Below, piece by piece: positions 868-47,843 of a stretch of DNA of 64,000 nt (positions are counted from its first letter, which is position 1; each line of letters begins with the position of its first letter). The DNA is from Alphaproteobacteria bacterium (GTDB lineage Bacteria; Pseudomonadota; Alphaproteobacteria; UBA828): positions 146,749 to 210,748 of the forward strand of contig CBDCRW010000002.1 of NCBI GenBank assembly GCA_965221125.1, written 5' to 3'. The translations under genes and the position numbers were made by a program. Below the pieces are notes generated by a model. It was not told the DNA's origin and did not search any database. It saw only the letters and a list, made by a program, of their open reading frames with translations.

Positions 868-1604
868 TCGTCCTCTTCACGGATTTCGGGCCGGGCGGGC
901 CGTACACGGGCCAGATGAAGGCCGTGCTCGCGCGCGAGGCGCCGGGCGTCCCCGTGGTCGACCTCGCGGACGACCTGCCCGCCTGCGATCCCGAGCCCGC
1001 CGCCTATCTGCTCGCGGCCTTCGCGCCGGCCTTCCCGCCGGGCGCGGTCTTCGTCTGCGTGGTCGACCCCGGCGTGGGCAGCGCGCGGGCGCCGGTGGCG
1101 GTGAGCGCCGGCGGTCGCTGGTACGTCGGCCCCGACAACGGCCTCCTCGCCATCGTCGCCCGGCGGGCGGACGACGCGCGCTGGTTCGCCATCGACTGGC
1201 GGCCACCCACCCTCTCCGCCTCCTTCCACGGCCGCGATCTCTTCGCGCCGGTGGCGGCGCAATTGGCGCGCGGGGACGCGCTGCCGGGCACGCCGCTGGA
1301 CGGCGCCCCGGCCGGCGCCGACTGGCCGGACGACCGGGCCGCGATCGTCTACATCGACCCCTACGGCAACGCGATGACCGGAATCCGCGCGGCCCGGCTG
1401 GCGGAGGACGCGGTCGTCGTCGCAGGCGGCCGGCGGCTCCAGAAGCTGCGCACGTTCTCCGACGCCGCAAGGGGCGCGGCCTTCTGGTACGAGAACGCGA
1501 ACGGGCTCGCCGAGGTCGCGGTCAACCGGGGCCGCGCGGACCGGGTTCTGGGTCTCGGCGTGGGAACGCCGGTCCGCATCGAGACGGCGGGCGGCGCGGG
1601 ATGA
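864..1604 (+). CDS. DUF62 SAM hydrolase / SAM hydroxide adenosyltransferase family protein
   Basis: LFTDFG, VVDPGVGSAR, GPDNG, SFHGRDLF and IDPYGN motifs; GTG start overlaps the upstream TGA (GTGA). Confidence 0.88.
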   Translation: MIVLFTDFGPGGPYTGQMKAVLAREAPGVPVVDLADDLPACDPEPAAYLLAAFAPAFPPGAVFVCVVDPGVGSARAPVAVSAGGRWYVGPDNGLLAIVARRADDARWFAIDWRPPTLSASFHGRDLFAPVAAQLARGDALPGTPLDGAPAGADWPDDRAAIVYIDPYGNAMTGIRAARLAEDAVVVAGGRRLQKLRTFSDAARGAAFWYENANGLAEVAVNRGRADRVLGLGVGTPVRIETAGGAG

Positions 1605-2332
1605 CGGGCTGGCGGCCGAACGGAGACCAGATTCGCGCGGGCGCGCTCGCCGGCGCCGACCTCTCGGGCTTCGACCTGCAGGGCTTCCACTTCCGCCAGG
1701 CCGACCTGCGCGGTGCCAGCTTCGCCGGCAGCATCCTGCGCGAGGTCGACCTCTGGGCCGCCGATCTCACCGGCGTCGACCTCACCGGCGCGAACCTGCG
1801 GCTTGCCACCTTCAAGGGTGCAAAGCTGCAGGGCGCGCGGCTCGCCGGCGCGGACCTCTGGAGCGCCGATCTCAAGGTCGCCGACCTGGACGGCGCCGTT
1901 CTCTCGGAGTGCAATCTCGCCCAGGCCGAGCTTGCCGGTGCGAAGTGCCGGGGCGCGGACTTCAGCGGCGCCGAGCTCTACTGCGCCGACCTGCGCCTCG
2001 CCGACCTGGAGAACGCCAACCTCGGCCGCGCCGACGGGCGCCTCGCCAAGCTGGAGGAGGCGGTGCTGATCGGCGCCAACCTGCGCGAAGCGAATTTCTC
2101 GGGCGCGAGCTTCAAGCGCGCGCGCCTCGCCACTGCCGACTTCGCCGGCGCCTACCTGCGCGAGGCGAACTTCCGCGAGGCCGATCTCATCCGCGCCGAC
2201 TTTCGCGGGGCCGAGGTGGCGGACGCCTTCTTCGGCCAGGCCAACCTCGACGGCACGGTGATGCCCGACGGCACCATCGAGTCCGCGGCGCTGCGCCACT
2301 GGTCCCCGCCGCCGGAGCCGGACGAGGATTGA
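1601..2332 (+). CDS. pentapeptide repeat protein
   Basis: long run of A(D/N)L/Fxx repeats ending in MPDG; ATGA overlap with the upstream gene. Confidence 0.9.
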   Translation: MTGWRPNGDQIRAGALAGADLSGFDLQGFHFRQADLRGASFAGSILREVDLWAADLTGVDLTGANLRLATFKGAKLQGARLAGADLWSADLKVADLDGAVLSECNLAQAELAGAKCRGADFSGAELYCADLRLADLENANLGRADGRLAKLEEAVLIGANLREANFSGASFKRARLATADFAGAYLREANFREADLIRADFRGAEVADAFFGQANLDGTVMPDGTIESAALRHWSPPPEPDED

Positions 2333-2504
2333 AGCGCGTCCGTCATGCACGGACGCGCTTCAGGCCGCGACCGCGGCCCGCCGCGAATGCGGCGCGCCCG
2401 CATCGTGCGCTCCGCGCGCGTTCCGCGCGACGGCGCCGGTCGAAGACCGGCTGCCGTGAGCGATAAAGGCATAGAGCGTTTCCGTGCAATACGGATACGC
2501 CCTA
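2329..2504 (-). repeat. dispersed two-hairpin intergenic repeat (RIME-like), family A copy 1
   Basis: reverse complement aligns with 33619-33767, with terminal palindromes and the shared core GCCTTTATC..CGGCAGCCGGTCTTCGACCGGCGCC. Confidence 0.85.
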
Positions 2505-4187
2505 CCGCCCTTCGTTCCCGAAGCCGTCGTCGACGACGACATCGAGGAGCGTCGGCCCGTCGCGCCGGGTGGAGTCGGCGAGGGCCGGCGCGATGTCGTC
2601 CGCATCCGTGATCCGCAGCGCGGTCACCCCGAGCGAGCGGGCGAGGCCGGTGAAGTCGATCGCCGGGTCCTTGAACTCCATGCCGGCGTAGTGCTCGACG
2701 CCGTGAAACGATTTCAGGCGCTCCTTGATGATGCGGTAGCCGCCGTTGTTGGCGATGACGTAGGTGATCGGCAGCCTGGCGTTCGCGGCGGTCCAGAGCG
2801 CCTGGATGCTGTACATCGCGCTGCCGTCGCCGACGACGGCGACGACGGGCCGGTCGGGAAGCGCCAGCTGCACGCCCACCGCGCCCGCCATAGCGAAGCC
2901 GATGCCGCCGCTGCCGAGGCCGAAGTACGCCCTGGTGTCGCGGAAGGGATAGAGCGCGGGGAGCGCGCGGGCGCTCAGGATCCCCTCCTCCACGATGACC
3001 GCGTCGGCGGGCAGGGCGTCGACGAGCCGGAGCATCGCGAGGTCCGGCGCCATCGGCGTCTCGCCCGCGCGCGCACACGCGGTGGCGCGGACGGCCTCGC
3101 GCTTCGCGGACCAGTTGGAGGGCCCGAGCGCCGCAATCGCGGCTTCTGCCTCGGCGGCTCCTGCAGCGCCCCGCCTGCTCGCGATCAGGCCGGCGAGGGC
3201 GGCGAGCGTCTCCTTCACGTCGGCGCGCAGCGCGATCTCCGCCGGGTAGTTCTTGCCCATCTCCCAGTCCCGGAGGCCGATCTGGACCACGGCCAGGCCG
3301 TCGGGCATCGGGTCGGTCTCGCTGAACACCGACATGCGCAGCACGTCCGAGCCGATGCAGAACATCAGGTCGTGGGGCGCAAGGGTCTCGCGGATCTCGC
3401 GCTGATCGCGCGTGAGCGCGCCCATGAAGGCCGGGTGCTCGGAGAGGAAGTGCGCCCCGTCGCACACCGTCTGCTGGTAGACCGGCGCGCCCAGCGCCTC
3501 GGCAATCCTCGCCGCTTCCGCAAGGGCGCCCGAGGTCGCGACTTCGTGCCCGGCCACGATGACCGGGCGCCGCGCCGCGAGCAGGCGGTCCGCCAGGCGA
3601 CCGAGCGCCGCGTCGCTCGGCCTGCCGGCCGCATCCACCCGCGTCGGCTGGCCGAGCTCGAGCGCGTCCTGCTCGTTGAGAATGTCGCCCGGCAGCGAGA
3701 TGAACACCGGGCCGGTGGGCGGCGTCGTCGCGATCTTCGCGGCACGGCGCAGGATGCGCGGCAGGTCGCGCAGCCGGCTCACCTCCACCGCCCACTTCAC
3801 GAGCGGCTGCGCGATCGGCACCAGGGGCGCGTAGAGCAGCGGCTCGGTCAGCCCGTGGCCCTGCTCCTGCTGCCCGGCGGTGACGATGACCGGCGAGCCC
3901 ATCCACTTCGCGTTGTAGAGCGAGCCCATGGCGTTGCCGAGCCCCGGCGCGACGTGGACGTTGCAGGCGCTGAGAGCGCCCGAGGCGCGCGAGTAGCCGT
4001 CCGCCATGGCGACCACCAGGGCCTCCTGCAGCGCCATGACGTATCTGATCGCAGGCCGGCCGGGGAGCGCCGCCATGATCGGCAGCTCGGTGGTGCCGGG
4101 GTTGCCGAAGAGATGCGATACCCCCTCGCTCTCGAGCAGCGCGAGGAAGGCGTCGCGGCCGAAGATTGTGTTCATGGCGTCGGACAT
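2502..4187 (-). CDS. ThDP-dependent enzyme, benzoylformate decarboxylase-like
   Basis: FGNPGTTELP, LQEA and the GDGS..NN ThDP-binding motif; start MSDAMN at 4187. Confidence 0.88.
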   Translation of the reverse strand: MSDAMNTIFGRDAFLALLESEGVSHLFGNPGTTELPIMAALPGRPAIRYVMALQEALVVAMADGYSRASGALSACNVHVAPGLGNAMGSLYNAKWMGSPVIVTAGQQEQGHGLTEPLLYAPLVPIAQPLVKWAVEVSRLRDLPRILRRAAKIATTPPTGPVFISLPGDILNEQDALELGQPTRVDAAGRPSDAALGRLADRLLAARRPVIVAGHEVATSGALAEAARIAEALGAPVYQQTVCDGAHFLSEHPAFMGALTRDQREIRETLAPHDLMFCIGSDVLRMSVFSETDPMPDGLAVVQIGLRDWEMGKNYPAEIALRADVKETLAALAGLIASRRGAAGAAEAEAAIAALGPSNWSAKREAVRATACARAGETPMAPDLAMLRLVDALPADAVIVEEGILSARALPALYPFRDTRAYFGLGSGGIGFAMAGAVGVQLALPDRPVVAVVGDGSAMYSIQALWTAANARLPITYVIANNGGYRIIKERLKSFHGVEHYAGMEFKDPAIDFTGLARSLGVTALRITDADDIAPALADSTRRDGPTLLDVVVDDGFGNEGR

Positions 4188-4201
4188 CGGGCCGGCCCCT
4201 C

Positions 4202-5296
4202 CTAGGCGCCCACGTCCACGATGGCCACCACCGGGCCGCCGCCCTGCGGCCCCTGGTGCATCGCATCGACCGAGACGAACACGGCGGGATCGCCGATGGC
4301 CGCCGCCGCGACGCCGCCGACCGCGCCCTTGGAATGGCGGTGGTGGTGGACGTCGGAATCGTCCAGCATGATCTGGCGGCGGCCGCGCAGGCGCGCGGTG
4401 CGGTCGGCCTCGCACTTGATGAAGCAGTTGACGAGCTTGCCGCCGAGATCGGCCGCGCGCGCGCGCTCCGGCAGGTCGAGGCCAGCGTTGCGGATGCCAT
4501 CGTAGATGCCGTCGATGTCGAGCGCGTCCTGCATGACGCCGTGGCCGATGCGGAAGCGCCCGCCGGCGCCGCGCGCGTTGCCGAAGAGGACGATCTGCCC
4601 GCGGTCGAGCTCCACGCCGGACGAGCACGAGGCGACCGAGGAGTAGAGGTCGAGGTTGCGGCAGATTTCCTCCGCCCGCGGCATGGCGACTTCGCCGAGA
4701 GCGACCGCGATGCCGAGCCCGGTGGTGCCGTTGGAGACCCCCATCGATTCGTGGACCTCGCAGGCCGCGCTCTCGCCCCGCCCGTGGGCGTCCTGCACCG
4801 TGTCGATGGTGAGCAGCGGCGTCTTGGTCTGCACGTAGTGGACGTCCGCCGCATCGGCGATGCCGGCGTCGGCCATGGCGGCGCGGACGCCGTCCGCGAT
4901 CTTTTCCACCATCGCCGGCCGGCCGATGTCCTCGGGCAGGATGGGCGCGCTCATGGCGGTCCCCATGGCGAGGCGGAGCGCATCCGGGGGCCCGGTCTCG
5001 TCGTTGCGGGCGAAGACGGTGGCGTGCGGGGTGAGCACGCCGTCGCAGCCGCCCGACCAGACCATGGGGATCTCGCCGACCTCCGCTTCGCTCCGCGCGC
5101 CATGCGCGAGGAGGACGCCGCGGAAGGCGTTGTCCGACAGGATCCGGGTGAAGTCGTTGACCCCGCCGTTGCCCTCCGTCTTGCCGATCACGGCGACGAC
5201 GGAATCCGCCGCCATGCGGCCCGACGCGATGAGTTCCTCAAGCCCTGAGGCGTCCGAGACCGACTTGATCTCGACCTTCGCGACGTCGATGGCCAT
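4202..5296 (-). CDS. ring-opening cyclic amide hydrolase, barbiturase-like (AtzD/Bar family)
   Basis: [44 protein letters not shown] and [12 protein letters not shown] motifs. Confidence 0.9.
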
Positions 5297-5316
5297 GTCT
5301 CCCTCCCCTGCCGCTC

Positions 5317-6570
5317 TCAAGCCCAGGCCGTGCGCCGCTGCGTCACGGTCTCGGCGACGACGCGGCCGCGCTTGATGACGTGGGTGCGGTCGGCCCGCCG
5401 GGTCAGCGCCTGCAGCGGGTCGGCCGCGTCGATGACGACCAGATCGGCGACGCAGTCGGGCGCCGCGCCATAGTCGGCGAGCCCCATGGTGCGCGCGGCG
5501 GCGCCGGTCTGCATGTCGAAGACGGTCTCGATCTCGTGCGGGCGGCTCATGTGCGCGGCGTGGCTCGCGAGGAAGGTCACCTCCAGCGGATCGCCGGTGC
5601 CGAAGGGGTAGAACGTGTCGCGGATGCAGTCCTGACCGCAGGAGACGTTGACGCCCGCCTCCAGCAGCTCCTTCACGCGGGTGATGCCGCGCCGCTTGGG
5701 CTGCGCGTCGCCCCGCCCCTGCAGCATCAGGTTGGTCGCCGGGTTCACGATCATGTGGATGCCGGCGTCCCGCACGAGGCCGATGACGCGGTTGGCGTAG
5801 TTCTCCTCGTAGCCCGCGAGCGCGCAGGTGTGGCCGGCGGTGACGCGCCCCTGCCAGCCGTTCTCCATCGTCTGCTCGGCCAGCATCTCCAGCGTCTTGG
5901 CGTCGGGGTCGTCGGTCTCGTCCACGTGCATGTCGATATCGGCATCGTGGTGCTTCGCGATCTCGAAGGCGAGCGCAATGTGGCGCGCGCTCTCCGCCGG
6001 CGAGGCCTCGTTGAAGGGCATGCCGCCCACCAGATCGCAGCCGGCCTCCATCGCCTTCCACATGAGGTCGTGGGTGCCCTTGTCCTTGAAGATGCCCTCC
6101 TGCGGGAAGGCCACGATCTGCACGTCGGCGATGTCGCGGGTGCGCTCGCGCGCTTCGAGAACGCCTTCGAGGGGGCGCAGGCCGCCGATGCTGTCCACGT
6201 CGACGTGGCTGCGAAAGCGCGTGACCCCGTGGGCGACGGCGGAGCGGATGGTGCGCACCGCGCGCGCGGCGATTTCCTCCACCGTGTAGGCGCGCTTCCG
6301 CGCCCAGATGATCTCGATGGCCTCGTCGAGCGTGCCCGACGCGTTGGGCCTCACGTCGTCGTTGATCTGCGCCTTGTCGAGGTGGATGTGCGGCTCCAGA
6401 AAGCCGGCCACGCAGAGGCGCCCGCCGGCATCGACGGTGCGCTCGGCCGCAGCCGCGCCGCCCGGAGGCGCGTCGACGAAGCGGCCGTCTCGGGCGAAAA
6501 GGTCGCAGGGCGCGTCCTCCCGCCAGAGGCGCGCGCCTGTGATCGCGAGGTCGACCCGGTCGTCCGTCAT
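5317..6570 (-). CDS. metal-dependent deaminase, cytosine/creatinine deaminase (CodA/AtzC)-like
   Basis: [26 protein letters not shown] and [13 protein letters not shown] motifs. Confidence 0.88.
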
Positions 6571-6584
6571 CGTTCGCTCCTTCC

Positions 6585-7994
6585 TCAGCCGCCAGCGTCC
6601 GCAAGGCGGGCCAGAGTCTCGTCCCGGCCAAGCGCCGCCATGACGGCGAAGATTCCGGGCGACGCATGGGAGCCCGTGAGCGCCGCCCTGAGCGGTTGCG
6701 CGACCTTGCCCAGCCCGACCCCTTCGCCTTCGGCGAAGGCGCGGACGGCACTCTCAAGCGCCGCCTGGTCCCACGCCGCGCCATGCTCCAGGGCGGCCTT
6801 CAGGCGGGCAAGACGGGCGCGCGCCTCGCTGCCCGCGTCGCCGATCAGCTTCGCCGCCTTGGGCGTCATGGCGTCTCGCGGATCGCGAAACAGGAACGCG
6901 AGGTTGTCCGCCAGCTCGACCAGGGTCTTGGCGCGCGCCTTGGCCTCGGGCAGCAGGGCTGCGATGCGCCGGCGCCCCTCGGCGGTGGCGGCCAGCGGGT
7001 ACGTTGCGGCGAGGCGGGGCTCGACCTCGGCCAGCAGGTCCGAGTCCGCGCTCTCGCGGATGTAGTGGCCATTCAGGCTCTGCAACTTCTCCATGTCGAA
7101 GCGGGCGGCGCCCCGGTTCACCGCCCCTAAGTCGAACCAGGCGATGGCCTGGGCGGTGTCGATGATCTCGTCGTCGCCGTGGCTCCAGCCCAGCCTCAGC
7201 AGCGCGTTGCGCATGGCGGCGGGCAGGATGCCGTCATCGGCATAGGCGCCGATGGCGACCGCGCCGTGCCGCTTGGAGAGCTTCGCGCCGTCGGCGCCGT
7301 GGATCAGCGGGATGTGCGCGTAGGCCGGCGGCTCCCAGCCCAGCGCGCGGAAGAGCTGGGTCTGGCGAAAGGCGTTGCTGAGGTGGTCGTCCCCCCGGAT
7401 CGCGTGGGTGATGCCCATGTCGTGGTCGTCGACGACCACCGAGAGCATGTAGGTGGGCGTGCCGTCGGCCCTGAGCAGCACCATGTCGTCGAGCGCGCTA
7501 TTGTCGATTTTGACTTGTCGTTGTACCAAATCCGATATGACTGTCTCCCCCTCCTGCGGCGCCCGGAAGCGGATGACGGGGTCTGCGCCGGGCGGCGCGT
7601 CCGCCGGATCGCGGTCGCGCCAGCGGCCATCGTAGAGCGCGGCCCGGCCCTCGGCGCGGGCCTCGGCGCGCATGGCCTCCAGCTCCTTCGGCGAGCAGTA
7701 GCAGCGGTAGGCCCCGCCGGCGGCGAGCAGCCCGTGCGCGACCTCCACATGGCGCTGCCGGCGCTCGGACTGCCGCACGATCTCGCCGTCCCAGTCGAGG
7801 CCGAGCCAGCCGAGCCCGTCGACGATGGCGGCGATGGCCTCGGGAGTCGAGCGCTTGCGGTCGGTATCCTCCAGGCGGAGCAGAAAACTGCCGCCGTGGT
7901 GGCGCGCGTAGAGCCAGTTGAAGAGGGCGGTCCGCGCGCCGCCGAGATGCAGCATGCCGGTCGGCGACGGCGCGAAGCGCGTGACGACGCTCAT
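6585..7994 (-). CDS. gltX: glutamate--tRNA ligase
   Basis: [15 protein letters not shown] (HIGH) and KLSKR (KMSKS) motifs. Confidence 0.97.
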
Positions 7995-8128
7995 GTGCGG
8001 TCTCACCCCCGGCAGGCGGCCCGGCGCTTGGCCGCGGATCGGAACGGTCGAGCGTTTAGCATATCGCCCGGCGGCAGGCGACCGGCGGCGGCACGTGCAA
8101 GGCGCCTTCGCTGCGCGAGCTTGCCCGC

Positions 8129-10186
8129 GTGCTGAGGCGCCTGGCCGGGCTGCGCCTCCATCTCGCCTCGGTGTGGGCTGCCGAGCGTCAGCGCGTGTTC
8201 CTCTGGGTGCCGGTGCTGTTCGGCGCGGGCGGCGGCCTCTATCTCACCCTGCCGGCGGAGCCGGTGGGCTGGATCGCGCCGGCGGCCGCCGGGATTTTCG
8301 TGTCGGGCGCGCTGCTCGTGCGCCGGCACACGGCGCCGGCCCTCGCACTTGCGGCGCTGGCGCTGCTCGCCGCCGGCGTCGCCGCCGCCGACTGGCGCAC
8401 CGGGCGGGTCGCCGCGCCGGTGCTGGAGGAGCCGATCGGCCCGGTCGATGTGACAGGGCGCGTGGTTTGGGTCGGCGCCGGCGACGGCCCGCAGCGCTAC
8501 CTGCTCGACCGCGTGCGCATCGAGCGCCTGGCCCCGGAGGCAACGCCCGCGCGCGTGCGCCTCAGCGTGCGCAGCACGGGCCCGGACGGCCTGGCCGCGC
8601 CCGGATCGTGGCTCACGGCGCTCGCCTCGCTCAGGCCGCCGCCGGCGCCGGCGGAGCCCGGCGCGTGGGACTTCGCGCGGCAAGCGTGGTTCCAGCGGAT
8701 CGGCGCGGTCGGCTTCGTCTACGGCGCGCCGCAGCCGTTGGCGGCGTCTGAGGGCGAGGGCGGCGGGCTGCTCTCGCTGCTCTCCCAGGTGCGCCACTGG
8801 GTCTCGGCGCGGATTCTGGCACACACCACGCCGTCTGCAGGACCCTTCGCGGCGGCGCTGCTCACCGGCGACCGGAGCGCCATCGAGAAGACGACGCTGC
8901 AGGCCATGCGGGACTCCGGCCTGGCTCATCTGCTGGCGATCTCCGGGCTTCACGTCGGCCTCGTCGCCGGGTTCATCTTCTTCGCCGCGCGCGGGGCGCT
9001 GGCGCTGATCGAGCCGGTGGCGCTGCGGATGCCGATCAAGAAATGGGCGGCGGGATGCGCGCTGCTCGGCGGTGCCGCGTACCTGTTGCTGTCCGGCATG
9101 AGCGTGCCGACGCAACGGGCGTTCGTCATGGTCGGTTTCGTGCTGCTCGCGATCATGCTGGACCGGGCGAGCATTTCCATGCGCCTGATCGCCCTGGCGG
9201 CGCTCCTGGTGCTCGCGCTCGCGCCCGAGAGCATGCTGGGCCCGAGCTTCCAGATGTCCTTCGCCGCGGCGACGGCGCTGATCGCGACCTACGAGGCGGC
9301 GCGCCGCCCCTTCGCCCGGCTGGCGGCGCGGGGCGGCCTCGCGCTCCGCCCCCTCGTCTACGCGGCGGGCGTGGCGCTCACCTCCCTCGTTGCCGGCATC
9401 GCCACCGGCCCGTTCGCGGTCTACCACTTCAACCGCATCGCCGACTACGGGCTGGTCGCGCTCGTCCTCATGCCGCTCGGGCTCGAAGGGCTCGCGCTCG
9501 CACCCATGGGCTGGGGCATCGACGCGGTGGTGTGGATCGCGAGCCGGGTCGCCGAACAGCCGGGCGCGGTCACGCTGGTTCCGGCGATGCCGGCGGCTGC
9601 GCTGCTTGCCATCGTGGTCGGCGGCCTCTGGCTCTGCCTCTGGCGCAGCCGCTGGCGCTTTCTCGGGATCGCCGTGATCGGCGGCGGCATGGTGATCGCG
9701 GGCCTGGACCGGAGGCCGGACATTCTGATCGACGGCGAGGCCAAGGTGATGGCGGTGCGGGGCGAGGACGGGCGGCTCTGGGTCTCCACCCGCAAGCGCG
9801 GGCGCTTCGTGAGCGACGTCTGGCTCAGGCGGGACGGACAGGCGGAGCCGCTGACCTGGCCGCGCGCCGGCGAAGGCGCGCCCGCCGCGGGCCTCCGCTG
9901 CGATACGCTCGGGTGCATTCAGCAGCGGGGCGAGAGAATCATCGCCTTCGTGCGCGACCCCCGCGCCTTCGCGGAAGACTGCCGCCGGGCCGATCCCGTC
10001 ATCGCCGCCGTCCCCGCCTGGGATCTCTGCCCGAGCCCTGAGACCGTGGTGGACCGCTTCGACCTGTGGCGGGCCGGCAGCCACGCCATATGGTTCCTGC
10101 CCGACGGCGTCCGCGTGGAAAACGTGACCGAATTGCGCGGAGAGCGGCCGTGGGTCGCACGGCGCACTCCGGCCTGGGAGAAATAG
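8129..10186 (+). CDS. comEC: ComEC/Rec2 competence membrane protein (possible internal in-frame deletion)
   Basis: [18 protein letters not shown] and SFQMSF motifs; lies between gltX and lexA. Confidence 0.9.
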
Positions 10187-11153: not shown

Positions 11154-11762
11154 ATGGCACACGATCATGCTCACAATGCGCCTCCATCCGATACCGCGAT
11201 GAGGGTGAAGGCGCTGGAGACGCTGCTCACCGAGAAGGGCCTGCTCGATCCGGCCGCCATCGACGCCCTGGTGGAGACCTACGAGACCAAGATCGGCCCG
11301 CGCAACGGCGCCAAGGTGGTGGCCAGGGCGTGGACGGACCCGGACTACAAGGCAAGGCTGCTGGAGAACGGCAGCGCGGCGATCGCCGAGCTCGGATTCA
11401 GCGGCGTGCAGGGCGAGGACATGGTCGTCGTGGAGAACACCGACGACGTGCACAACATGGTCACGTGCACGCTCTGTTCCTGCTACCCGTGGCCGACGCT
11501 CGGCCTGCCGCCCATCTGGTTCAAGAGCGCGCCCTACCGGGCCCGCTCGGTCATCGACCCGCGCGGCGTGCTCGAGGAGTTCGGCGTCGAACTCTCCGAC
11601 GACGTCGAGATCCGCGTGTGGGACAGCAACGCCGAGCTCCGCTACCTGGTGCTGCCGCAGCGGCCGGCAGGCACCGAGGGCATGAGCGAAGACGCGCTGG
11701 CGGCGCTGGTGACCCGCGATTCGATGATCGGCACGGCGCTGGCCGAAGCGCCCGCCGCCTAG
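11154..11762 (+). CDS. nthA: cobalt-type nitrile hydratase alpha subunit
   Basis: [10 protein letters not shown] claw motif (Thr/Tyr, Co-type), [17 protein letters not shown]. Confidence 0.95.
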
Positions 11763-11784
11763 CAGGTCGCAAGGGAGCAGAGCG

Positions 11785-12099
11785 ATGAACGGCATCCACG
11801 ACATGGGCGGCATGCAGTGCATGGGCCCGATCGTCCGCGAAGAAAACGAGCCCCAGTTCCACGAAGAGTGGGAGGGCCGGGTCTTCGGCATGTTCTTCAC
11901 CAACTTCGCCGAGGGCCACTTCAACGTGGACATGTTCCGCCACGCCATCGAGCGCATGGGCCCGGCCGAGTACCTGGAGACCTCGTATTACGAGCACTGG
12001 CTGCACGTCTACGAGACCGTGCTGGTGGAGCGCGGCGTGCTGACCAGGGAAGAACTCGACGAGAAGCTCGCCAGCCTTCGCGAAGCGGGAGGATCGTGA
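11785..12099 (+). CDS. nthB: nitrile hydratase beta subunit, N-terminal domain (split gene)
   Basis: MNGIHDMGG, FRHAIERM and SYYEHW motifs; ends after 104 aa. Confidence 0.88.
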   Translation: MNGIHDMGGMQCMGPIVREENEPQFHEEWEGRVFGMFFTNFAEGHFNVDMFRHAIERMGPAEYLETSYYEHWLHVYETVLVERGVLTREELDEKLASLREAGGS

Positions 12100-12452
12100 T
12101 GCCGACTCTGACGCCTGACATGGTGCCGGGCCTGGTGGCCGGCGGCGCCTCCTGCCGGATGGACGTGGACGTGGCGCCCAGTTTCAAGGTGGGCGACGCG
12201 GTGACCGCCCGCGACATCAACCCCGTGTCCCACACGCGCCTGCCGCGCTACATCCGCGGCAGGACCGGGCGGATCATGCGCGATCACGGCGTCTTCGCGT
12301 TTCCGGACACGTCGGCCGCGTCCGGCACCCACTGCGACCCGCAGCACGTCTACAGCGTGCGCTTCGAGGGGAGCGAGCTTTGGGGGGCGCATGCGAACGC
12401 CAACGCCTGCGTCTACATCGACCTCTTCGACGACTATCTCGAGAGCGCATGA
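12099..12452 (+). CDS. nitrile hydratase beta subunit, C-terminal SH3-like domain (split gene)
   Basis: HTRLPRYIRGRTG, YSVRF..ELWG and DLFDDYLE motifs; TGATG overlap and own GGGAGGA RBS. Confidence 0.85.
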   Translation: MPTLTPDMVPGLVAGGASCRMDVDVAPSFKVGDAVTARDINPVSHTRLPRYIRGRTGRIMRDHGVFAFPDTSAASGTHCDPQHVYSVRFEGSELWGAHANANACVYIDLFDDYLESA

Positions 12453-12823
12453 GCGACGCGCCGTCGGCCGACGATCTGCCGCAGCTTCCCTGGGAGGCCG
12501 AGGACGGGCCTGTCTTCAAGGAGCCGTGGGAGGCGACCGCCTTCGCCATGGCGGTGCGGCTGTCGGAGGCCGGCACGTTCACCTGGTCGGAGTGGGTTGA
12601 CTACCTCTCCGCCGAGATCGCGGCGGCGAAGCGCAGCGGCGAGCCCGACCTCGGCGATCGCTACTACGAGCACTGGCTGCGCGCGCTGGAGAAGCTCGTG
12701 GTCGACAAGGGGCTGGGTTCCGAAGCGGAGCTTGCCCGCCTCAAGCACGACTGGACCGAGGCGGCCGTCCATACGCCCCGCGGCAAGCCCATCGCGCTGA
12801 AGAAGCGCACGCCCGCCGATTAG
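12449..12823 (+). CDS. nitrile hydratase accessory/activator protein (P14K-like)
   Basis: PVFKEPWEA.AFAMAV.L, FTWSEW, YYEHWL.ALE, HTPRGKPI; ATGA overlap. Confidence 0.88.
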   Translation: MSDAPSADDLPQLPWEAEDGPVFKEPWEATAFAMAVRLSEAGTFTWSEWVDYLSAEIAAAKRSGEPDLGDRYYEHWLRALEKLVVDKGLGSEAELARLKHDWTEAAVHTPRGKPIALKKRTPAD

Positions 12824-43968: not shown

Positions 43969-45741
43969 CTAGGCCGCCTGTTTCGCCATCTCGGCGCGGC
44001 GCGCCGCGGTCGCGGCGACGTCGATCTCCAGCGCCTCGGTGAGAACCACGCCGTAAGCGTCGCGCGCATGCTCGCGGGTGCAGAAGTCGTCGAGCACGTC
44101 TTCGCGCACCTGCTCGGCCGTGCGCTCCAGCGGGTCGCCGTAGCCGCCGCCGCAGGGGCCGAGGAAGCCTATGCAGTCGCCGGTCTGGTTGCGCAGCCCG
44201 TGGATCTTGGCCGGCAGGTCCTCGACGCGCTCAGGCTCGGCCACGTTGTACTTGATGAGGCGCCCGCCCTGGCCGGTCGTGCCGCCGCGAAAGCCCCAGG
44301 GCGGGTCGTCGTGGCGGTCCGCCTCGTGGGTGAGGAAGCCGGGCGTGAGGTAGCGCTGCACCTTGATCACGCCGATGCCGCCGCGATGGCGGCCCGCGCC
44401 CGGCATCACGTCGTCGCGCAACTCGTAGCGATCGCAGAGCAGCGGCAGGTGCATGCCGAGGTCCTCGATGGGGTTGTTGCGCGTGTTGCGCATCAGCTCC
44501 TCGATGGTGTCCGGCCCGTCGGAATGGGGCCTGCCGCCGCAGGCGCCCTCGTTGACCTCGATGAAGACCCAGTACTGGCCGTCCGGCCTGACGCCGGAAT
44601 AGGCGATCGCGGAGACGTCGGCGGAAGAGCCCGCCGTCACCTTCTCCGGGATCACCGGGGCAAGCGCCTTGGCGATGCAGTCGACCACGCGCTGGATCTG
44701 GTTGAAGCGCGCCTCGGCTGACGCCGGATACTCGGGGTTGAAGATCGTGCCCTTGGGCGCGGTGACCTTGATGGGGCGGAACGAGCCCTCGTTCTGCGGC
44801 ACGTGCTCGCTGATGGTCGCCGTATCGAGCAGCAGCGCGCGGAAAGCGAAGTAGCAGGCGACCTTGGTCGAGCCCTCGAAGGGCACGTTGAAGGCGGTCG
44901 GCACCTGGGGGGACGAGCCGGTGAGGTCGACCTCGGCGGAATCGCCCTCGATGCGGACCGCGACCTTGACCGGGAGTGGCTCCTTCCGGTTGCGTCCGTC
45001 GTCGTCCAGAAAACCCTCGGCCCGGTACTCGCCGTCGGGGATCGCCCCGATCTGGCGGCGCAGCATGCGCTCGGAATAGTCCATGAGCTGCTCGGTGGCG
45101 GCGAACACCAGGTCCTTGCCGTGCTGGTCGATGAGCTCGACGAAGCGCTTGACGCCGAGCTCGGCGGAGGCGACCTGGGCCTCGATGTCGCCCATCACCT
45201 GGCTCGGCACCCGCGTGTTGGTCTCGATGAACTGCCAGAGCGCACGGTTGAGCTTGCCGCCCTCGTAGAGCTTCACGCCCTTGAACAGCATGCCCTCGGC
45301 GAAGACGTCCGGCACGTCGATGATGAGGCCGGGCGTGGCTGCGCCGATATCCACGTGGTGCGCGGTGTTGGCCGAGTAGCCGACCAGCTCGCCGTCGTAG
45401 AAGACCGGCGCCACGGCGGCGATGTCCGGCGAGTGGCTCGCGCCGTAGTAGGGGTGGTTGTGGATGACGATGTCGCCCGGCTGCCAGGGGTCGTGCAGGG
45501 TCTCGTCGATCCCGCGCAGGTAGGCGGGGATGGAGCCGATGTGCATCGGCGTCGAATCCGATTCGCAGAGCGTGTTGAAGCTGCGGTCGAAGAGCCCGGC
45601 GCCGAGATCCTCCGATTCCCGGATGATGGACGAGTAGGACATGCGGTAGAGCACATGCCCCATCTCCTTGGCGATGGTGTGCAGCGCACCGCCGATCACC
45701 TGCAGGGTGATCGGGTCGACGTCGATCCTCTCGGCGGTCAT
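43969..45741 (-). CDS. hydantoinase B/oxoprolinase family protein
   Basis: SSIIRE, HIGS, N.PY.GASH.PD, HHVDIG, GGGYGDP. Confidence 0.92.
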   Translation of the reverse strand: MTAERIDVDPITLQVIGGALHTIAKEMGHVLYRMSYSSIIRESEDLGAGLFDRSFNTLCESDSTPMHIGSIPAYLRGIDETLHDPWQPGDIVIHNHPYYGASHSPDIAAVAPVFYDGELVGYSANTAHHVDIGAATPGLIIDVPDVFAEGMLFKGVKLYEGGKLNRALWQFIETNTRVPSQVMGDIEAQVASAELGVKRFVELIDQHGKDLVFAATEQLMDYSERMLRRQIGAIPDGEYRAEGFLDDDGRNRKEPLPVKVAVRIEGDSAEVDLTGSSPQVPTAFNVPFEGSTKVACYFAFRALLLDTATISEHVPQNEGSFRPIKVTAPKGTIFNPEYPASAEARFNQIQRVVDCIAKALAPVIPEKVTAGSSADVSAIAYSGVRPDGQYWVFIEVNEGACGGRPHSDGPDTIEELMRNTRNNPIEDLGMHLPLLCDRYELRDDVMPGAGRHRGGIGVIKVQRYLTPGFLTHEADRHDDPPWGFRGGTTGQGGRLIKYNVAEPERVEDLPAKIHGLRNQTGDCIGFLGPCGGGYGDPLERTAEQVREDVLDDFCTREHARDAYGVVLTEALEIDVAATAARRAEMAKQAA

Positions 45742-47843
45742 GGCTGGGCGACCTCCCTCACGTGCAGATTGCCCGATTGCGCGACCGTCGCCTCGTGGCC
45801 GGGCGGGACGATGGTGGTCGAATCGGTCTGGATGACGATGGCCGGGCCGTCGATGTGCTGGCCGGCCCGGAGCCCGCCGCGGTCGAAGCGCGGCGTCTCG
45901 TAGGTCTTGCCGTCGTCGAAGGTGGTGGCGCGGCGGTAGAGCAGCGCGTCCTCCGGGTTGCGGCCGTCGCCCGCCGGCGACTCCGGCCAGCTCAGCGCGC
46001 CGATCCCGGCCGAGGCGACGACGCGGAGCGTGATGACCTCGACCTCCTGGTCCTCGAAGGCGTGGCCGTAGTCCTGCCGGTGGCGTTCGTGGAAGCTCGC
46101 CAGCAGCGCCGCCCGGTTGTCCAGCGTGAGCGGGCCGTCCGGCATGGTGCCGCGCAGCTCGAAGCCCTGCCCCTGGTAGCGGCACTCCGCGATCCTGACG
46201 ACGCGCTGGTGCTCCGGCGCCACGCCGTCCGCCGCGAGCGCGTCGCGGGCGCGCTGCACGAGGGTGTCGGTCTCGGCGTTGAGCGCGTCGATCTCGTCCT
46301 GGCTCGCCTGGGTGAGCACGCAGAGCACCGAGCGGGTGAACTCGTAGCGCATGTCGGTGGCGAGCAGGCCGGTCGCGGCGTTGATCCCCGGCGCCGGCGG
46401 CACGATCACCTCGCGGGCGAAGACCGAGCGCGCGAGCGCCACGCCGTGCAGCGGGCCGGCGCCGCCGAAGGCGACGAGGGCGTAGTCGCGCGGGTCGACG
46501 CCCTTGGCGACGGAGTTGGCGCGGATCGCGAGCGACATGTTGGAGTTGATGACGCGGATCACGCCGAGCGCCGCCTCTTCCAGCGACATGCCGAGCGGGC
46601 CGCAGAGGTTGTCTTCCAGCGCCTTGCGCGATTTCGCCGGGTCGATCTCCAGCCCGCCGCCGAGGAACTGCTCCGGGTCGAGCCGGCCGAGCACCACCTG
46701 CGCGTCGGTCACGGTGGGCTCGGTGCCGCCCCGGCCGTAGCAGGCCGGCCCCGGAGCGGCGCCGGCGGAGCGGGGGCCCACGCGGAAGGCCCCGCCCTCG
46801 TCGACGTAGGCGATGGAGCCGCCGCCCGCGCCGATGGTCGCGAGGTCGATCATGGGGGCCAGGATCGGGTAGCCGCCCACCTGCGTGTCTCTCGGGTTCA
46901 TGATGCGGACCTCGCCGCCCGGCACGACGCTGATGTCCGCCGAGGTGCCGCCGATATCGACGGTGATGAGGTTGCGCACGCCGGACATGTCGCCCGCCCA
47001 CTGGCCGCCGATGACGCCGCCGGCGGGCCCGGACATGAGGATCGTCACCGGGCGCTCGGCGGCGCCGGCGAGCGTGGTCACGCCGCCGTTGGACTGCATG
47101 ACGCGGATCTGGGCGTCGACACCGTTCTCCTTCAGCGCCCGGTCCAGATTGTTGAGATAGAAGGACGTGCGCGGGCCGATGAAGGCGTTCATCGCGGCGG
47201 TCGAGAAGCGCTCGTACTCGCGGATGACGTCGACCACCTCGGAGGAGCGGCTGACGTAGGCGTCCGGGATCACCTCCAGGACGATCTCCTTGGCGCGGCG
47301 CTCGTGCGCATCGTTGAGGAAGGCGAAGAGGAAGCAGACGATGATCGCGTCCACGCCGCGCGCCTTGAACAGCTCGGCCGCAGCGCGCACCTCGTCCTCG
47401 TCGAGCGCGGTCTCGATGCTGCCCTCCGGCGGCAGGATGCGCTCGGTGATCGGCACCCGGTTGCGGCGCTTGACCAGCGGGCGCGACTGCCAGGGCACGT
47501 CGAACTGCACCGAGAAGTTGTGCGGGCGCTTGTGCCGCGCCATGTGCAGGATGTCGCGGAAGCCGCGCGTGGTGAGCATGCCCACCTCGGCGCCGGAATA
47601 CTCGATCACCGTGTTGGTCGCGATGGTCGTGCCGTGAACGATCTGCTCGATGGCGCCGGGCGCGACGCCGGCCTCGGCGCAGATCTCGAGCACGCCCCGG
47701 ATGACGCCCAGCGACTGGTCCTCCGGCGTGCTCGGCACCTTGTGGACGAAGACCCGGTCGGCGGCGGCGGCGCTCGCGTCGCCATCGGTCTCCAGGATGA
47801 GGTCGGTGAACGTCCCCCCGACATCGACGCCGATTCTCGCCAT
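45738..47843 (-). CDS. hydantoinase A/oxoprolinase family protein (ATP-dependent)
   Basis: DVGGTFTD, HGTT, SGPAGG, DIGGTS, GAGGGS, PGPACYG. Confidence 0.93.
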   Translation of the reverse strand: MARIGVDVGGTFTDLILETDGDASAAAADRVFVHKVPSTPEDQSLGVIRGVLEICAEAGVAPGAIEQIVHGTTIATNTVIEYSGAEVGMLTTRGFRDILHMARHKRPHNFSVQFDVPWQSRPLVKRRNRVPITERILPPEGSIETALDEDEVRAAAELFKARGVDAIIVCFLFAFLNDAHERRAKEIVLEVIPDAYVSRSSEVVDVIREYERFSTAAMNAFIGPRTSFYLNNLDRALKENGVDAQIRVMQSNGGVTTLAGAAERPVTILMSGPAGGVIGGQWAGDMSGVRNLITVDIGGTSADISVVPGGEVRIMNPRDTQVGGYPILAPMIDLATIGAGGGSIAYVDEGGAFRVGPRSAGAAPGPACYGRGGTEPTVTDAQVVLGRLDPEQFLGGGLEIDPAKSRKALEDNLCGPLGMSLEEAALGVIRVINSNMSLAIRANSVAKGVDPRDYALVAFGGAGPLHGVALARSVFAREVIVPPAPGINAATGLLATDMRYEFTRSVLCVLTQASQDEIDALNAETDTLVQRARDALAADGVAPEHQRVVRIAECRYQGQGFELRGTMPDGPLTLDNRAALLASFHERHRQDYGHAFEDQEVEVITLRVVASAGIGALSWPESPAGDGRNPEDALLYRRATTFDDGKTYETPRFDRGGLRAGQHIDGPAIVIQTDSTTIVPPGHEATVAQSGNLHVREVAQP

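Follow-up and report, generated by a model that had tools for sequence, protein, structure and literature searches.

Of the routes by which pyrimidines are degraded, the oxidative (barbiturate) route is the least understood; it is known from actinobacteria, and its classical description includes a cytosine deaminase step. The pathway comprises uracil dehydrogenase, barbiturase and ureidomalonase; to our knowledge no sequence has been assigned in print to the first or the last of these enzymes, and our literature searches found no paper that assigns genes to either. Here we describe a locus in a window of 64,000 nucleotides (the whole stretch of DNA that was analysed, positions 146,749 to 210,748 of contig CBDCRW010000002.1, assembly GCA_965221125.1 of an Alphaproteobacteria bacterium), in which gltX is followed by genes for a CodA/AtzC-like amidohydrolase (the deaminase), an AtzD/Bar-family ring-opening hydrolase (the hydrolase) and a thiamine diphosphate (ThDP) enzyme resembling benzoylformate decarboxylase (BFD). 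We tentatively favor a reading in which the deaminase and the hydrolase would carry out the cytosine deaminase and barbiturase steps of the oxidative route, within an uncharacterised proteobacterial sister clade of the barbiturases.

Barbiturase (Bar, EC 3.5.2.1) of Rhodococcus erythropolis (structure 5hwe, Group VI of the family) shares with the window hydrolase its fold, its Ser-Lys dyad blocks and four specificity residues (Asn/His/Lys/Val), and across the wider clade such hydrolase genes are linked with those for an amidase, for HyuA/HyuB and for enzymes that process malonate or malonyl-CoA. Bar hydrolyses barbiturate to ureidomalonate and is inhibited by cyanurate, which does not serve it as a substrate. 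The window hydrolase differs from Bar in falling into its own proteobacterial clade (~64% identity), in having Asp in place of Ser/Ala at the remaining specificity position, and in being paired with a CodA paralogue, a CodA-like gene being present in 0/80 actinobacterial hydrolase loci. The AtzC-AtzD(-AtzE) system of Pseudomonas sp. ADP follows the same scheme, in which a CodA-family aminohydrolase yields a trioxo ring, a Toblerone-fold enzyme opens it and an amidase acts on the open chain, and it can be compared with sister operons of our locus that read deaminase-hydrolase-amidase. However, the window hydrolase lacks the RTRGG residues of the cyanurate type, the deaminase resembles CodA more closely than AtzC (266 bits to Escherichia coli cytosine deaminase versus 201 to AtzC), the window locus has no amidase, and the sister-operon amidase scores 207-214 bits, below the AtzE subfamily cut-off of 425.75. 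E. coli CodA (1k6w, 3o7u) has the same amidohydrolase fold as the deaminase. Finally, the ThDP enzyme has the three-domain architecture of benzoylformate decarboxylase (MdlC, 1bfd; best PDB matches ~263 bits) and retains the cofactor-activating Glu and His70, but it has Thr at the Ser26 position and Ser at the His281 position, scores 414.7 bits against the NCBIfam benzoylformate decarboxylase equivalog (cut-off 493) and has no mandelate-pathway neighbors. We take Ser26, His70 and His281 to be the catalytic residues of BFD.

In the proposed sequence of reactions, the deaminase, as a CodA paralogue, would strip the exocyclic 4-amino group from a cytosine-type pyrimidine, and an enzyme encoded elsewhere would oxidize C6 to give a 2,4,6-trioxo ring (barbiturate). 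The barbiturase-clade Ser-Lys hydrolase would then open barbiturate to ureidomalonate, which an unlinked amidase would convert to malonate and urea, and malonate would exit via malonyl-CoA decarboxylase. The analysis establishes the identities of the genes, the clade of the hydrolase, the conserved pairing, the insertion described below and the malonyl-CoA decarboxylase neighbor; all substrates, the oxidation at C6 and the enzyme that hydrolyses ureidomalonate we infer. We regard the locus as part of a known pathway type and not as a new pathway. What is new is an uncharacterised and often misnamed clade, together with conserved partners that can be tested: the dedicated CodA paralogue, an amidase, HyuA/HyuB and the processing of malonyl-CoA. 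In the accessible literature barbiturase figures as a rare, actinobacterial enzyme, and this locus and its relatives reveal a large proteobacterial clade.

A conserved gene pair and an inserted ThDP gene

Since the window has a G+C content of ~72%, genes were called by codon-position G+C and then verified by translation. The features of the locus are:

6585-7994, minus strand: gltX, the upstream neighbor, 14 bp from the deaminase gene (Pfam tRNA-synt_1c and Anticodon_2)
5317-6570, minus strand: CodA/AtzC-like amidohydrolase ('group A' deaminase), 417 aa (Pfam Amidohydro_3, 147.8 bits)
4202-5296, minus strand: AtzD/Bar-family ring-opening hydrolase (Toblerone fold), 364 aa (Pfam Amido_AtzD_TrzD, PF09663, 454.4 bits)
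2502-4187, minus strand: BFD-like ThDP enzyme, 561 aa (three Pfam TPP_enzyme domains)
2334-4201, no strand: insertion relative to syntenic relatives, 1868 bp (blastn synteny breaks)
1601-2332, plus strand: convergent pentapeptide-repeat gene that closes the gene row (Pfam Pentapeptide)

A preliminary description of this DNA had reported three co-oriented genes after gltX with gaps of 14-20 bp, and both their coordinates and their families were confirmed: all four genes lie on the minus strand, the gaps between gltX, deaminase, hydrolase and ThDP genes are 14, 20 and 14 bp, and Pfam and NCBIfam agree on the families of the deaminase, the hydrolase and the ThDP enzyme. Pfam annotation of the window genes revealed neither an amidase nor an obvious uracil dehydrogenase adjoining the trio. 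A promoter and terminator scan of positions 1500-8300, uninformative at 72% G+C, returned 0 promoter-like sites and a single terminator-like site, which was on the wrong strand and amounted to fewer than in shuffled sequences.

We compared the locus with 80 proteobacterial (L006-L085) and 80 actinobacterial (L200-L279) hydrolase loci, in which genes were called with our own codon-bias caller; de novo gene calling and clustering were applied to the proteobacterial set. The deaminase gene lay within 8 kb of the hydrolase gene in 35/80 proteobacterial loci and immediately upstream of it in 18/80, with a spacing of about 20-45 bp in these 18. A reverse scan with the deaminase retrieved 33 loci, 27 of them at ≥64% identity, and 24 of these 27 contained the hydrolase; the exceptions were L170 and L171, whose genomes encode the hydrolase elsewhere, and L195, a truncated contig. 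None of the 6 deaminase loci at ≤61% identity contained it. These pair counts are not independent, as many loci are common to both scans and the genomes are related. The order gltX-deaminase-hydrolase was found in 11 related loci, which makes gltX a conserved anchor. Conservation of the pair in several lineages, with deaminase identities of 64-94%, supports a functional tie between deaminase and hydrolase, and, judged by gene order, what is conserved is a catabolic module of two genes located after gltX.

The genome of the window (G000) carries a second intact pair on another contig (G000:C4:990832-994839, equivalent to L086:6832-10839), whose members are 91% and 94% identical to those of the window. 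This second pair is divergent from a gene for malonyl-CoA decarboxylase, an enzyme encoded in 4/80 loci. Such a neighbor points to malonate and hence to a pyrimidine unsubstituted at C5, not to alloxan or dialurate. A 2Fe-2S and molybdopterin-binding oxidoreductase pair lies ~8 kb from the second pair, beyond mreB. A third copy of the hydrolase gene is decayed (G000:C5:80231-82566, L087), with a frameshift, stop codons and an IS110-family transposase that splits it; beside it are genes for a RutR-like TetR regulator, a GMC oxidoreductase, a NIPSNAP protein and a Bmp-type ABC transporter.

The ThDP gene falls outside this module. In 10/10 syntenic relatives it is absent from the site, and gltX-deaminase-hydrolase is followed directly by the convergent pentapeptide gene, which abuts the hydrolase stop codon and forms the downstream boundary of the locus. 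Synteny detected by blastn with L010, L016, L017, L008, L012, L020 and L025 ended at 4202-4208 and restarted at 2302-2333. Only 5-7 bp separate these points in L010, L016 and L017, so that the window has 1868 extra bases, made up of the ThDP gene plus 168 bp and nothing else. No ThDP orthologue stood beside the hydrolase in any of the 80 proteobacterial or the 80 actinobacterial loci, a single 32% match in L018 being a different enzyme, and neither the deaminase nor the hydrolase occurred in any of 80 loci of ThDP homologues (58-88% identity). The neighbors of these homologues were heterogeneous (aldehyde dehydrogenase, SDR, GMC oxidoreductase, luciferase-like monooxygenase, OYE, M20 peptidase), and orthologues at 84-90% identity sat in unrelated contexts. 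The insertion and the closest ThDP orthologue loci had no synteny or flanking DNA in common, similarity being confined to the open reading frame. Among 20 congeneric genomes, a ThDP orthologue (86-90% identity) was found in three and never beside the hydrolase: in G004 it is on the same chromosome but far off, in G010 it is on another contig, and in G007 (67% complete) no hydrolase was found.

Given this absence from the site in the relatives, from the 160 hydrolase loci and from the 80 ThDP loci, we excluded the ThDP gene from the module; on comparative evidence it is a recent single-gene insertion and not a pathway member, and it is probably co-transcribed with the pair in this genome. The preliminary description had instead made the ThDP enzyme part of the pathway and had deduced from it a 2-oxo-acid product and a 5-oxygenated ring. 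In such a scheme the three enzymes would act together on a pyrimidine of the alloxan/dialurate type, the ThDP enzyme decarboxylating a 2-oxo acid such as mesoxalate, and this would suit both the short gaps, which suggest co-transcription, and an enzyme that is not a canonical benzoylformate decarboxylase. We consider it extremely unlikely in view of the clean insertion, the empty counts at hydrolase and ThDP loci, the heterogeneous ThDP neighbors and an orthologue restricted to 3/20 congeners. Of the three-gene neighborhood whose conservation was to be checked, the deaminase-hydrolase part was conserved and the trio was found in no other genome examined, an outcome that the preliminary description had itself named as refuting its proposal; the third gene elsewhere is an amidase. 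With the ThDP enzyme a hitchhiker, the proposed three-step chemistry is left without comparative support; the 2-oxo-acid product and the oxygenated ring fall with it, and the paralogous pair adjoins malonyl-CoA decarboxylase.

The hydrolase and its proteobacterial clade

When compared with solved structures, the hydrolase scored 486.7 bits to R. erythropolis barbiturase 5hwe over a full-length alignment and ≤284.6 bits to five cyanuric acid hydrolase structures, of which 6bum was the best. Membership in the AtzD/Bar family was evident from its matches to PF09663 (residues 5-361; cut-off 25) and TIGR02714 (472.5 bits; cut-off 153.1). The Ser-Lys dyad blocks IGKTEGNG/WSGG, QTKTP/CSSGVE and FIKCE/FVSV aligned residue for residue with 5hwe and 6bum, the three dyads having been assigned to these blocks by motif and not by structure. 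Conservation of the dyads throughout the family, including a universal central dyad with its Glu, has been described (PMC4051656). The aligned sequences read HWHRQIKS and VSVSAAHQGP in 5hwe, and QIKCPLLT and VYVSGGAEHQGP in a cyanuric acid hydrolase. The contrasts between barbiturase and cyanurate motifs drawn in the preliminary description were thus correct by alignment to solved structures, and every hydrolase motif that it quoted is present in the translation.

Section 12 of Peat 2013 (PMC3758960) gives Asn194/His324/Lys328/Val348/Ser or Ala349 (Bar numbering) as the specificity signature of barbiturase and Arg195/Thr321/Arg325/Gly345/Gly346 as that of the cyanurate type; as far as that source goes, the structural role of Ser349 comes from a 2013 homology model. 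To map these positions we counted along the alignment with 5hwe (chain number minus 20), which gave N189/H319/K323/V343/D344 in the window hydrolase, that is, four of the five residues of barbiturase type with an Asp at the fifth, and 0/5 of the RTRGG residues. The substitution that had been flagged earlier (VDAMHQ) therefore lies at a published specificity position. From its scores and its specificity residues, the hydrolase is of barbiturase and not of cyanurate-hydrolase type, in line with what had been proposed for it.

Database names are a poor guide to this assignment. The window hydrolase passes NCBIfam NF052395, an equivalog named 'cyanuric acid amidohydrolase' (435.4 bits; cut-off 360). 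Two further orthologues pass the same model, one that scores 685 bits against 5hwe and one from Rhodococcoides (469.4 and 477.9 bits with the model). Because orthologues of the crystallised barbiturase exceed its cut-off, the name of this model is not diagnostic for activity, and automatic annotation likely mislabels barbiturase-type genes as cyanuric acid hydrolase. Names of close relatives in public records vary among 'ring-opening amidohydrolase', 'barbiturase' and 'cyanuric acid amidohydrolase'.

To place the hydrolase, we aligned 224 sequences, namely the window hydrolase, 77 proteobacterial relatives (77-97% identity), 79 actinobacterial sequences (relatives of anchor P0124) and 67 full-length representatives, and built a FastTree phylogeny with a midpoint root. 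The proteobacterial hydrolases formed a clade of their own (support 0.78) next to the actinobacterial one (0.92), and the joint clade had a support of 0.96; the tree check suggested in the preliminary description thus put the hydrolase with the actinobacterial barbiturases, as a separate sister clade. The signature NHKVD was present in 77/77 proteobacterial relatives as well as in the window hydrolase, versus NHKVS in 79/79 actinobacterial sequences. RTRGG was found in 19 of the 67 representatives, the remainder displaying many other combinations. The window hydrolase was 60-66% identical to the 79 actinobacterial orthologues and ~40% identical to the RTRGG representatives. In the 2013 classification, Group VI (barbiturase) comprised actinobacteria only (PMC3758960). 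Together, the tree and the signatures support a large proteobacterial clade, sister to the actinobacterial barbiturases, that is uncharacterised and inconsistently named in public records. We found no assayed member of this clade in the accessible literature.

Within the genus, the hydrolase was found in 19/20 genomes, several with 2-3 copies, the sole exception being the incomplete G007. Two congeners have a stand-alone copy (L018:8001-9095 and L019:7953-9095) in a region whose counterpart in the genome of the window, G000:C6:~610600-613500, is syntenic except that it has no hydrolase gene. Comparison of these genomes indicates that the hydrolase gene moves about within the genus. Close relatives of the locus are metagenome-assembled genomes (MAGs) labelled Alphaproteobacteria or Rhodospirillales, and several DNA runs labelled as sponge metagenome contain 26-32% of sampled words of window positions 2300-8100; two RNA runs contain only 6-7% of the words and provide no evidence of expression.

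Partner genes in two phyla

Recurrent partners in the 80 proteobacterial loci were an amidase-signature enzyme of ~460 aa (40/80), HyuA (17/80), HyuB (20/80) and a flavin adenine dinucleotide (FAD) monooxygenase (8/80), along with an ABC transporter with an NMT1-type binding protein, UPRTase and others. In sister lineages, the conserved third gene is the amidase-signature enzyme instead of the ThDP enzyme; the amidase also occurs in 8/33 deaminase-scan loci, 7 of which read deaminase-hydrolase-amidase in one direction. The actinobacterial order is CoxG-amidase-HyuA-HyuB-NmrA-(CoA-transferase, carboxyltransferase)-amino-acid-kinase-family-hydrolase, with CoA-transferase in 43/80 loci, carboxyltransferase in 22/80 and the amino-acid-kinase-family gene directly upstream of the hydrolase in 71/80. 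Between Actinomycetota and Pseudomonadota, HyuA is 51% and the amidase 43% identical. The malonate-processing genes of both phyla would agree with malonate as end product. Our literature searches found nothing on the deaminase-hydrolase pair or on a HyuAB-barbiturase cluster.

The best matches in the genome of the window are only 42% identical to the hydrolase-linked amidase and 41% to HyuA, so this genome seems to be without orthologues of the hydrolase-linked amidase and HyuAB. A HyuB/HyuA pair of 590 and 701 aa does lie in the window (43969-47843, minus strand); it is 39% identical to hydrolase-linked HyuA and is probably one of several unrelated paralogues in the genome. Among the enzymes of the oxidative pathway, only a barbiturase-type gene was identified here. 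Candidates for the other two activities are the amidase of related loci and molybdenum hydroxylases, neither of which is found at this locus. This genome encodes >10 large subunits of the xanthine dehydrogenase family, and in L236, L244 and L252 the actinobacterial clusters are immediately preceded upstream by fragments of a subunit of this kind. In marine loci, the FAD monooxygenase gene stands between the hydrolase and the deaminase genes.

One locus is unusually rich in amidohydrolases. In L027:4-10516, a single operon contains three TRZ/ATZ-family amidohydrolases, a creatininase, a canonical cytosine deaminase, a group-A deaminase, the hydrolase and the amidase, and its gene content suggests several successive deaminations of a heterocycle rich in nitrogen. 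This bears on whether the NHKVD hydrolase might open another cyclic amide or ureide, such as a 5-substituted barbiturate, an amino-substituted ring, a triazine or a creatinine-derived ring, which the deaminase would prepare, for instance as a creatinine or ammelide deaminase. The fixed Asp of the proteobacterial clade, as opposed to Ser in the actinobacterial one, would fit such a role, as would the amidohydrolases and creatininase (358 bits; cut-off 235) upstream of the pair in L027, the creatinase-like M24 genes that precede the hydrolase in 5 marine loci and an isochorismatase resembling RutB or BiuH in 5-6 loci. We nevertheless consider a different ring quite unlikely, given the 60-66% identity to barbiturase orthologues, the four barbiturase-type residues with none of the cyanurate type, M24 genes that match no NCBIfam creatinase model, and a malonyl-CoA decarboxylase neighbor that fits malonate. 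The recurrent CodA-like, HyuAB, isochorismatase, creatininase and M24 genes also led us to consider the creatinine route (creatinine deaminase, N-methylhydantoinase HyuAB, carbamoylsarcosine amidase), which was dropped because the hydrolase is of barbiturase type, the M24 genes match no creatinase model and malonyl-CoA decarboxylase fits malonate.

The deaminase and the origin of the ring

In an alignment with CodA (1r9y), the deaminase and 38 relatives keep all of His61, His63, His214, Asp313, Gln156, Glu217 and His246, which we take to be the metal and catalytic residues of CodA. The deaminase has Gln-Asp-Cys-Ile-Arg where the E. coli enzyme has His-Asp-Asp-Val-Phe, corresponding to His312->Gln, Asp314->Cys and Phe316->Arg; position 316 is Arg, Lys or Gln among its relatives. 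In section 5 of a review (PMC9081823), D314 of CodA, near C5 of the substrate, is said to exclude 5-methylcytosine, and F316 is, in PMC4282525, one of three positions mutated for higher 5-fluorocytosine affinity. The motif GQDC-[IV]-[RKQ]-D was present in all relatives at ≥62% identity. A second subgroup (53-58% identity), with GQDN-L-[RQ]-D, belongs to the marine loci that contain the FAD monooxygenase. In L191 and L199, relatives at 56-57% identity that have the group-A motif as GQDC-K adjoin a permease of cytosine/uracil type and a molybdenum hydroxylase made up of three subunits. These two loci, L191:372-6576 of a Halanaerobiales MAG and L199:3-8959 of a Zixibacteria MAG, both from anaerobes, are a candidate context for a pyrimidine hydroxylase, the enzyme belonging to the xanthine dehydrogenase family. 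With the FAD monooxygenase of the marine loci and the large subunits of that family in the genome of the window, they lend some support to an ordinary cytosine-type deamination with subsequent oxidation at C6 by an enzyme encoded elsewhere.

Several observations weigh against the oxidative reading. The deaminase falls below the NCBIfam cytosine deaminase cut-offs (PRK07572, 378.4 against 438; PRK09230, 310.7 against 483), and CodA Asp314 is replaced by Cys in the window deaminase as well as in every group-A relative shown. The same genome encodes, at another place, a closer CodA orthologue of canonical type (GHDS), and a canonical CodA stands in tandem with a group-A deaminase in L027, L029 and L037, the copy there in L038 being more divergent. 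The tandem canonical CodA scores 356 bits to E. coli CodA, and that of L027 exceeds the PRK07572 cut-off with 489.3 bits. Judged from these sequences, the canonical CodA and the group-A deaminase probably differ in substrate. As for the hydrolase, its fifth specificity residue, Asp344, departs from the Ser/Ala of the full barbiturase signature and leaves room for a somewhat different ring substrate. Finally, minimal operons of deaminase-hydrolase(-amidase) contain no oxidoreductase, and no C6-oxidizing enzyme or ureidomalonate hydrolase could be assigned in this genome.

An alternative is a direct route free of oxidation, in which the group-A deaminase would act on a pyrimidine already oxygenated at C6, either 6-aminouracil (6-hydroxycytosine), as the preliminary description had proposed, or 2-amino-4,6-dihydroxypyrimidine, and release barbiturate, the hydrolase opens the ring and the amidase, the next gene in sister operons, completes degradation, in parallel with AtzC-AtzD-AtzE. 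The close spacing of the pair in 18 loci and the 7 deaminase-hydrolase-amidase loci without an oxidoreductase are consistent with such a route, which we regard as possible though doubtful. So are the tandem canonical CodA of L027, L029 and L037, the apparent absence of hydrolase-linked HyuAB orthologues from this genome, and a deaminase that keeps the metal, catalytic and N1/O2-face residues of CodA with two residues altered near C5/C6 (314 and 316). On the other side, relatives of the deaminase with the same active-site motif adjoin oxygenases (molybdenum hydroxylases, FAD monooxygenases), which suggests that oxygenation is part of the wider pathway, although it could precede deamination. Ecology also disfavors the direct route: nearly every genome of the genus carries the hydrolase, several in multiple copies, which points to a substrate that is common, and we know of no abundant natural source of 6-aminouracil.

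In a fuller version, which we likewise hold to be unlikely yet conceivable, a hydrolytic aminopyrimidine pathway would have the CodA paralogue (Cys314, Arg/Lys316) make barbiturate from 6-aminouracil, the fixed-Asp barbiturase clade open the ring and the sister-operon amidase serve as ureidomalonase. If true, this would be a pyrimidine counterpart of AtzC-AtzD-AtzE that is widespread in marine, soil and sponge-associated Proteobacteria, and it could also be fed by the ATP-dependent HyuAB module.

The deaminase might also act after ring opening, on the ureido group of ureidomalonate, replacing the amidase that is missing from the locus of this lineage. The locus of the sponge-associated clade indeed has no amidase, and the best match to the hydrolase-linked amidase in the genome reaches only 42%. 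This possibility is very unlikely, since amidase and deaminase co-occur in many loci, including those of the deaminase scan noted above, the full ring-binding and catalytic set of CodA is kept and the deaminase gene is upstream of the hydrolase gene in operons.

Elsewhere in the window, a nitrile hydratase cluster spans 11199-12823. The alpha subunit gene (11199-11762) is followed by a beta subunit present as two open reading frames in different frames, NHase_beta_N (11785-12099) and NHase_beta_C (12120-12452), and then by a 124-aa NHase_beta_N-like protein. The split reflects either a frameshift or a naturally split subunit; thiocyanate hydrolase has such a split.

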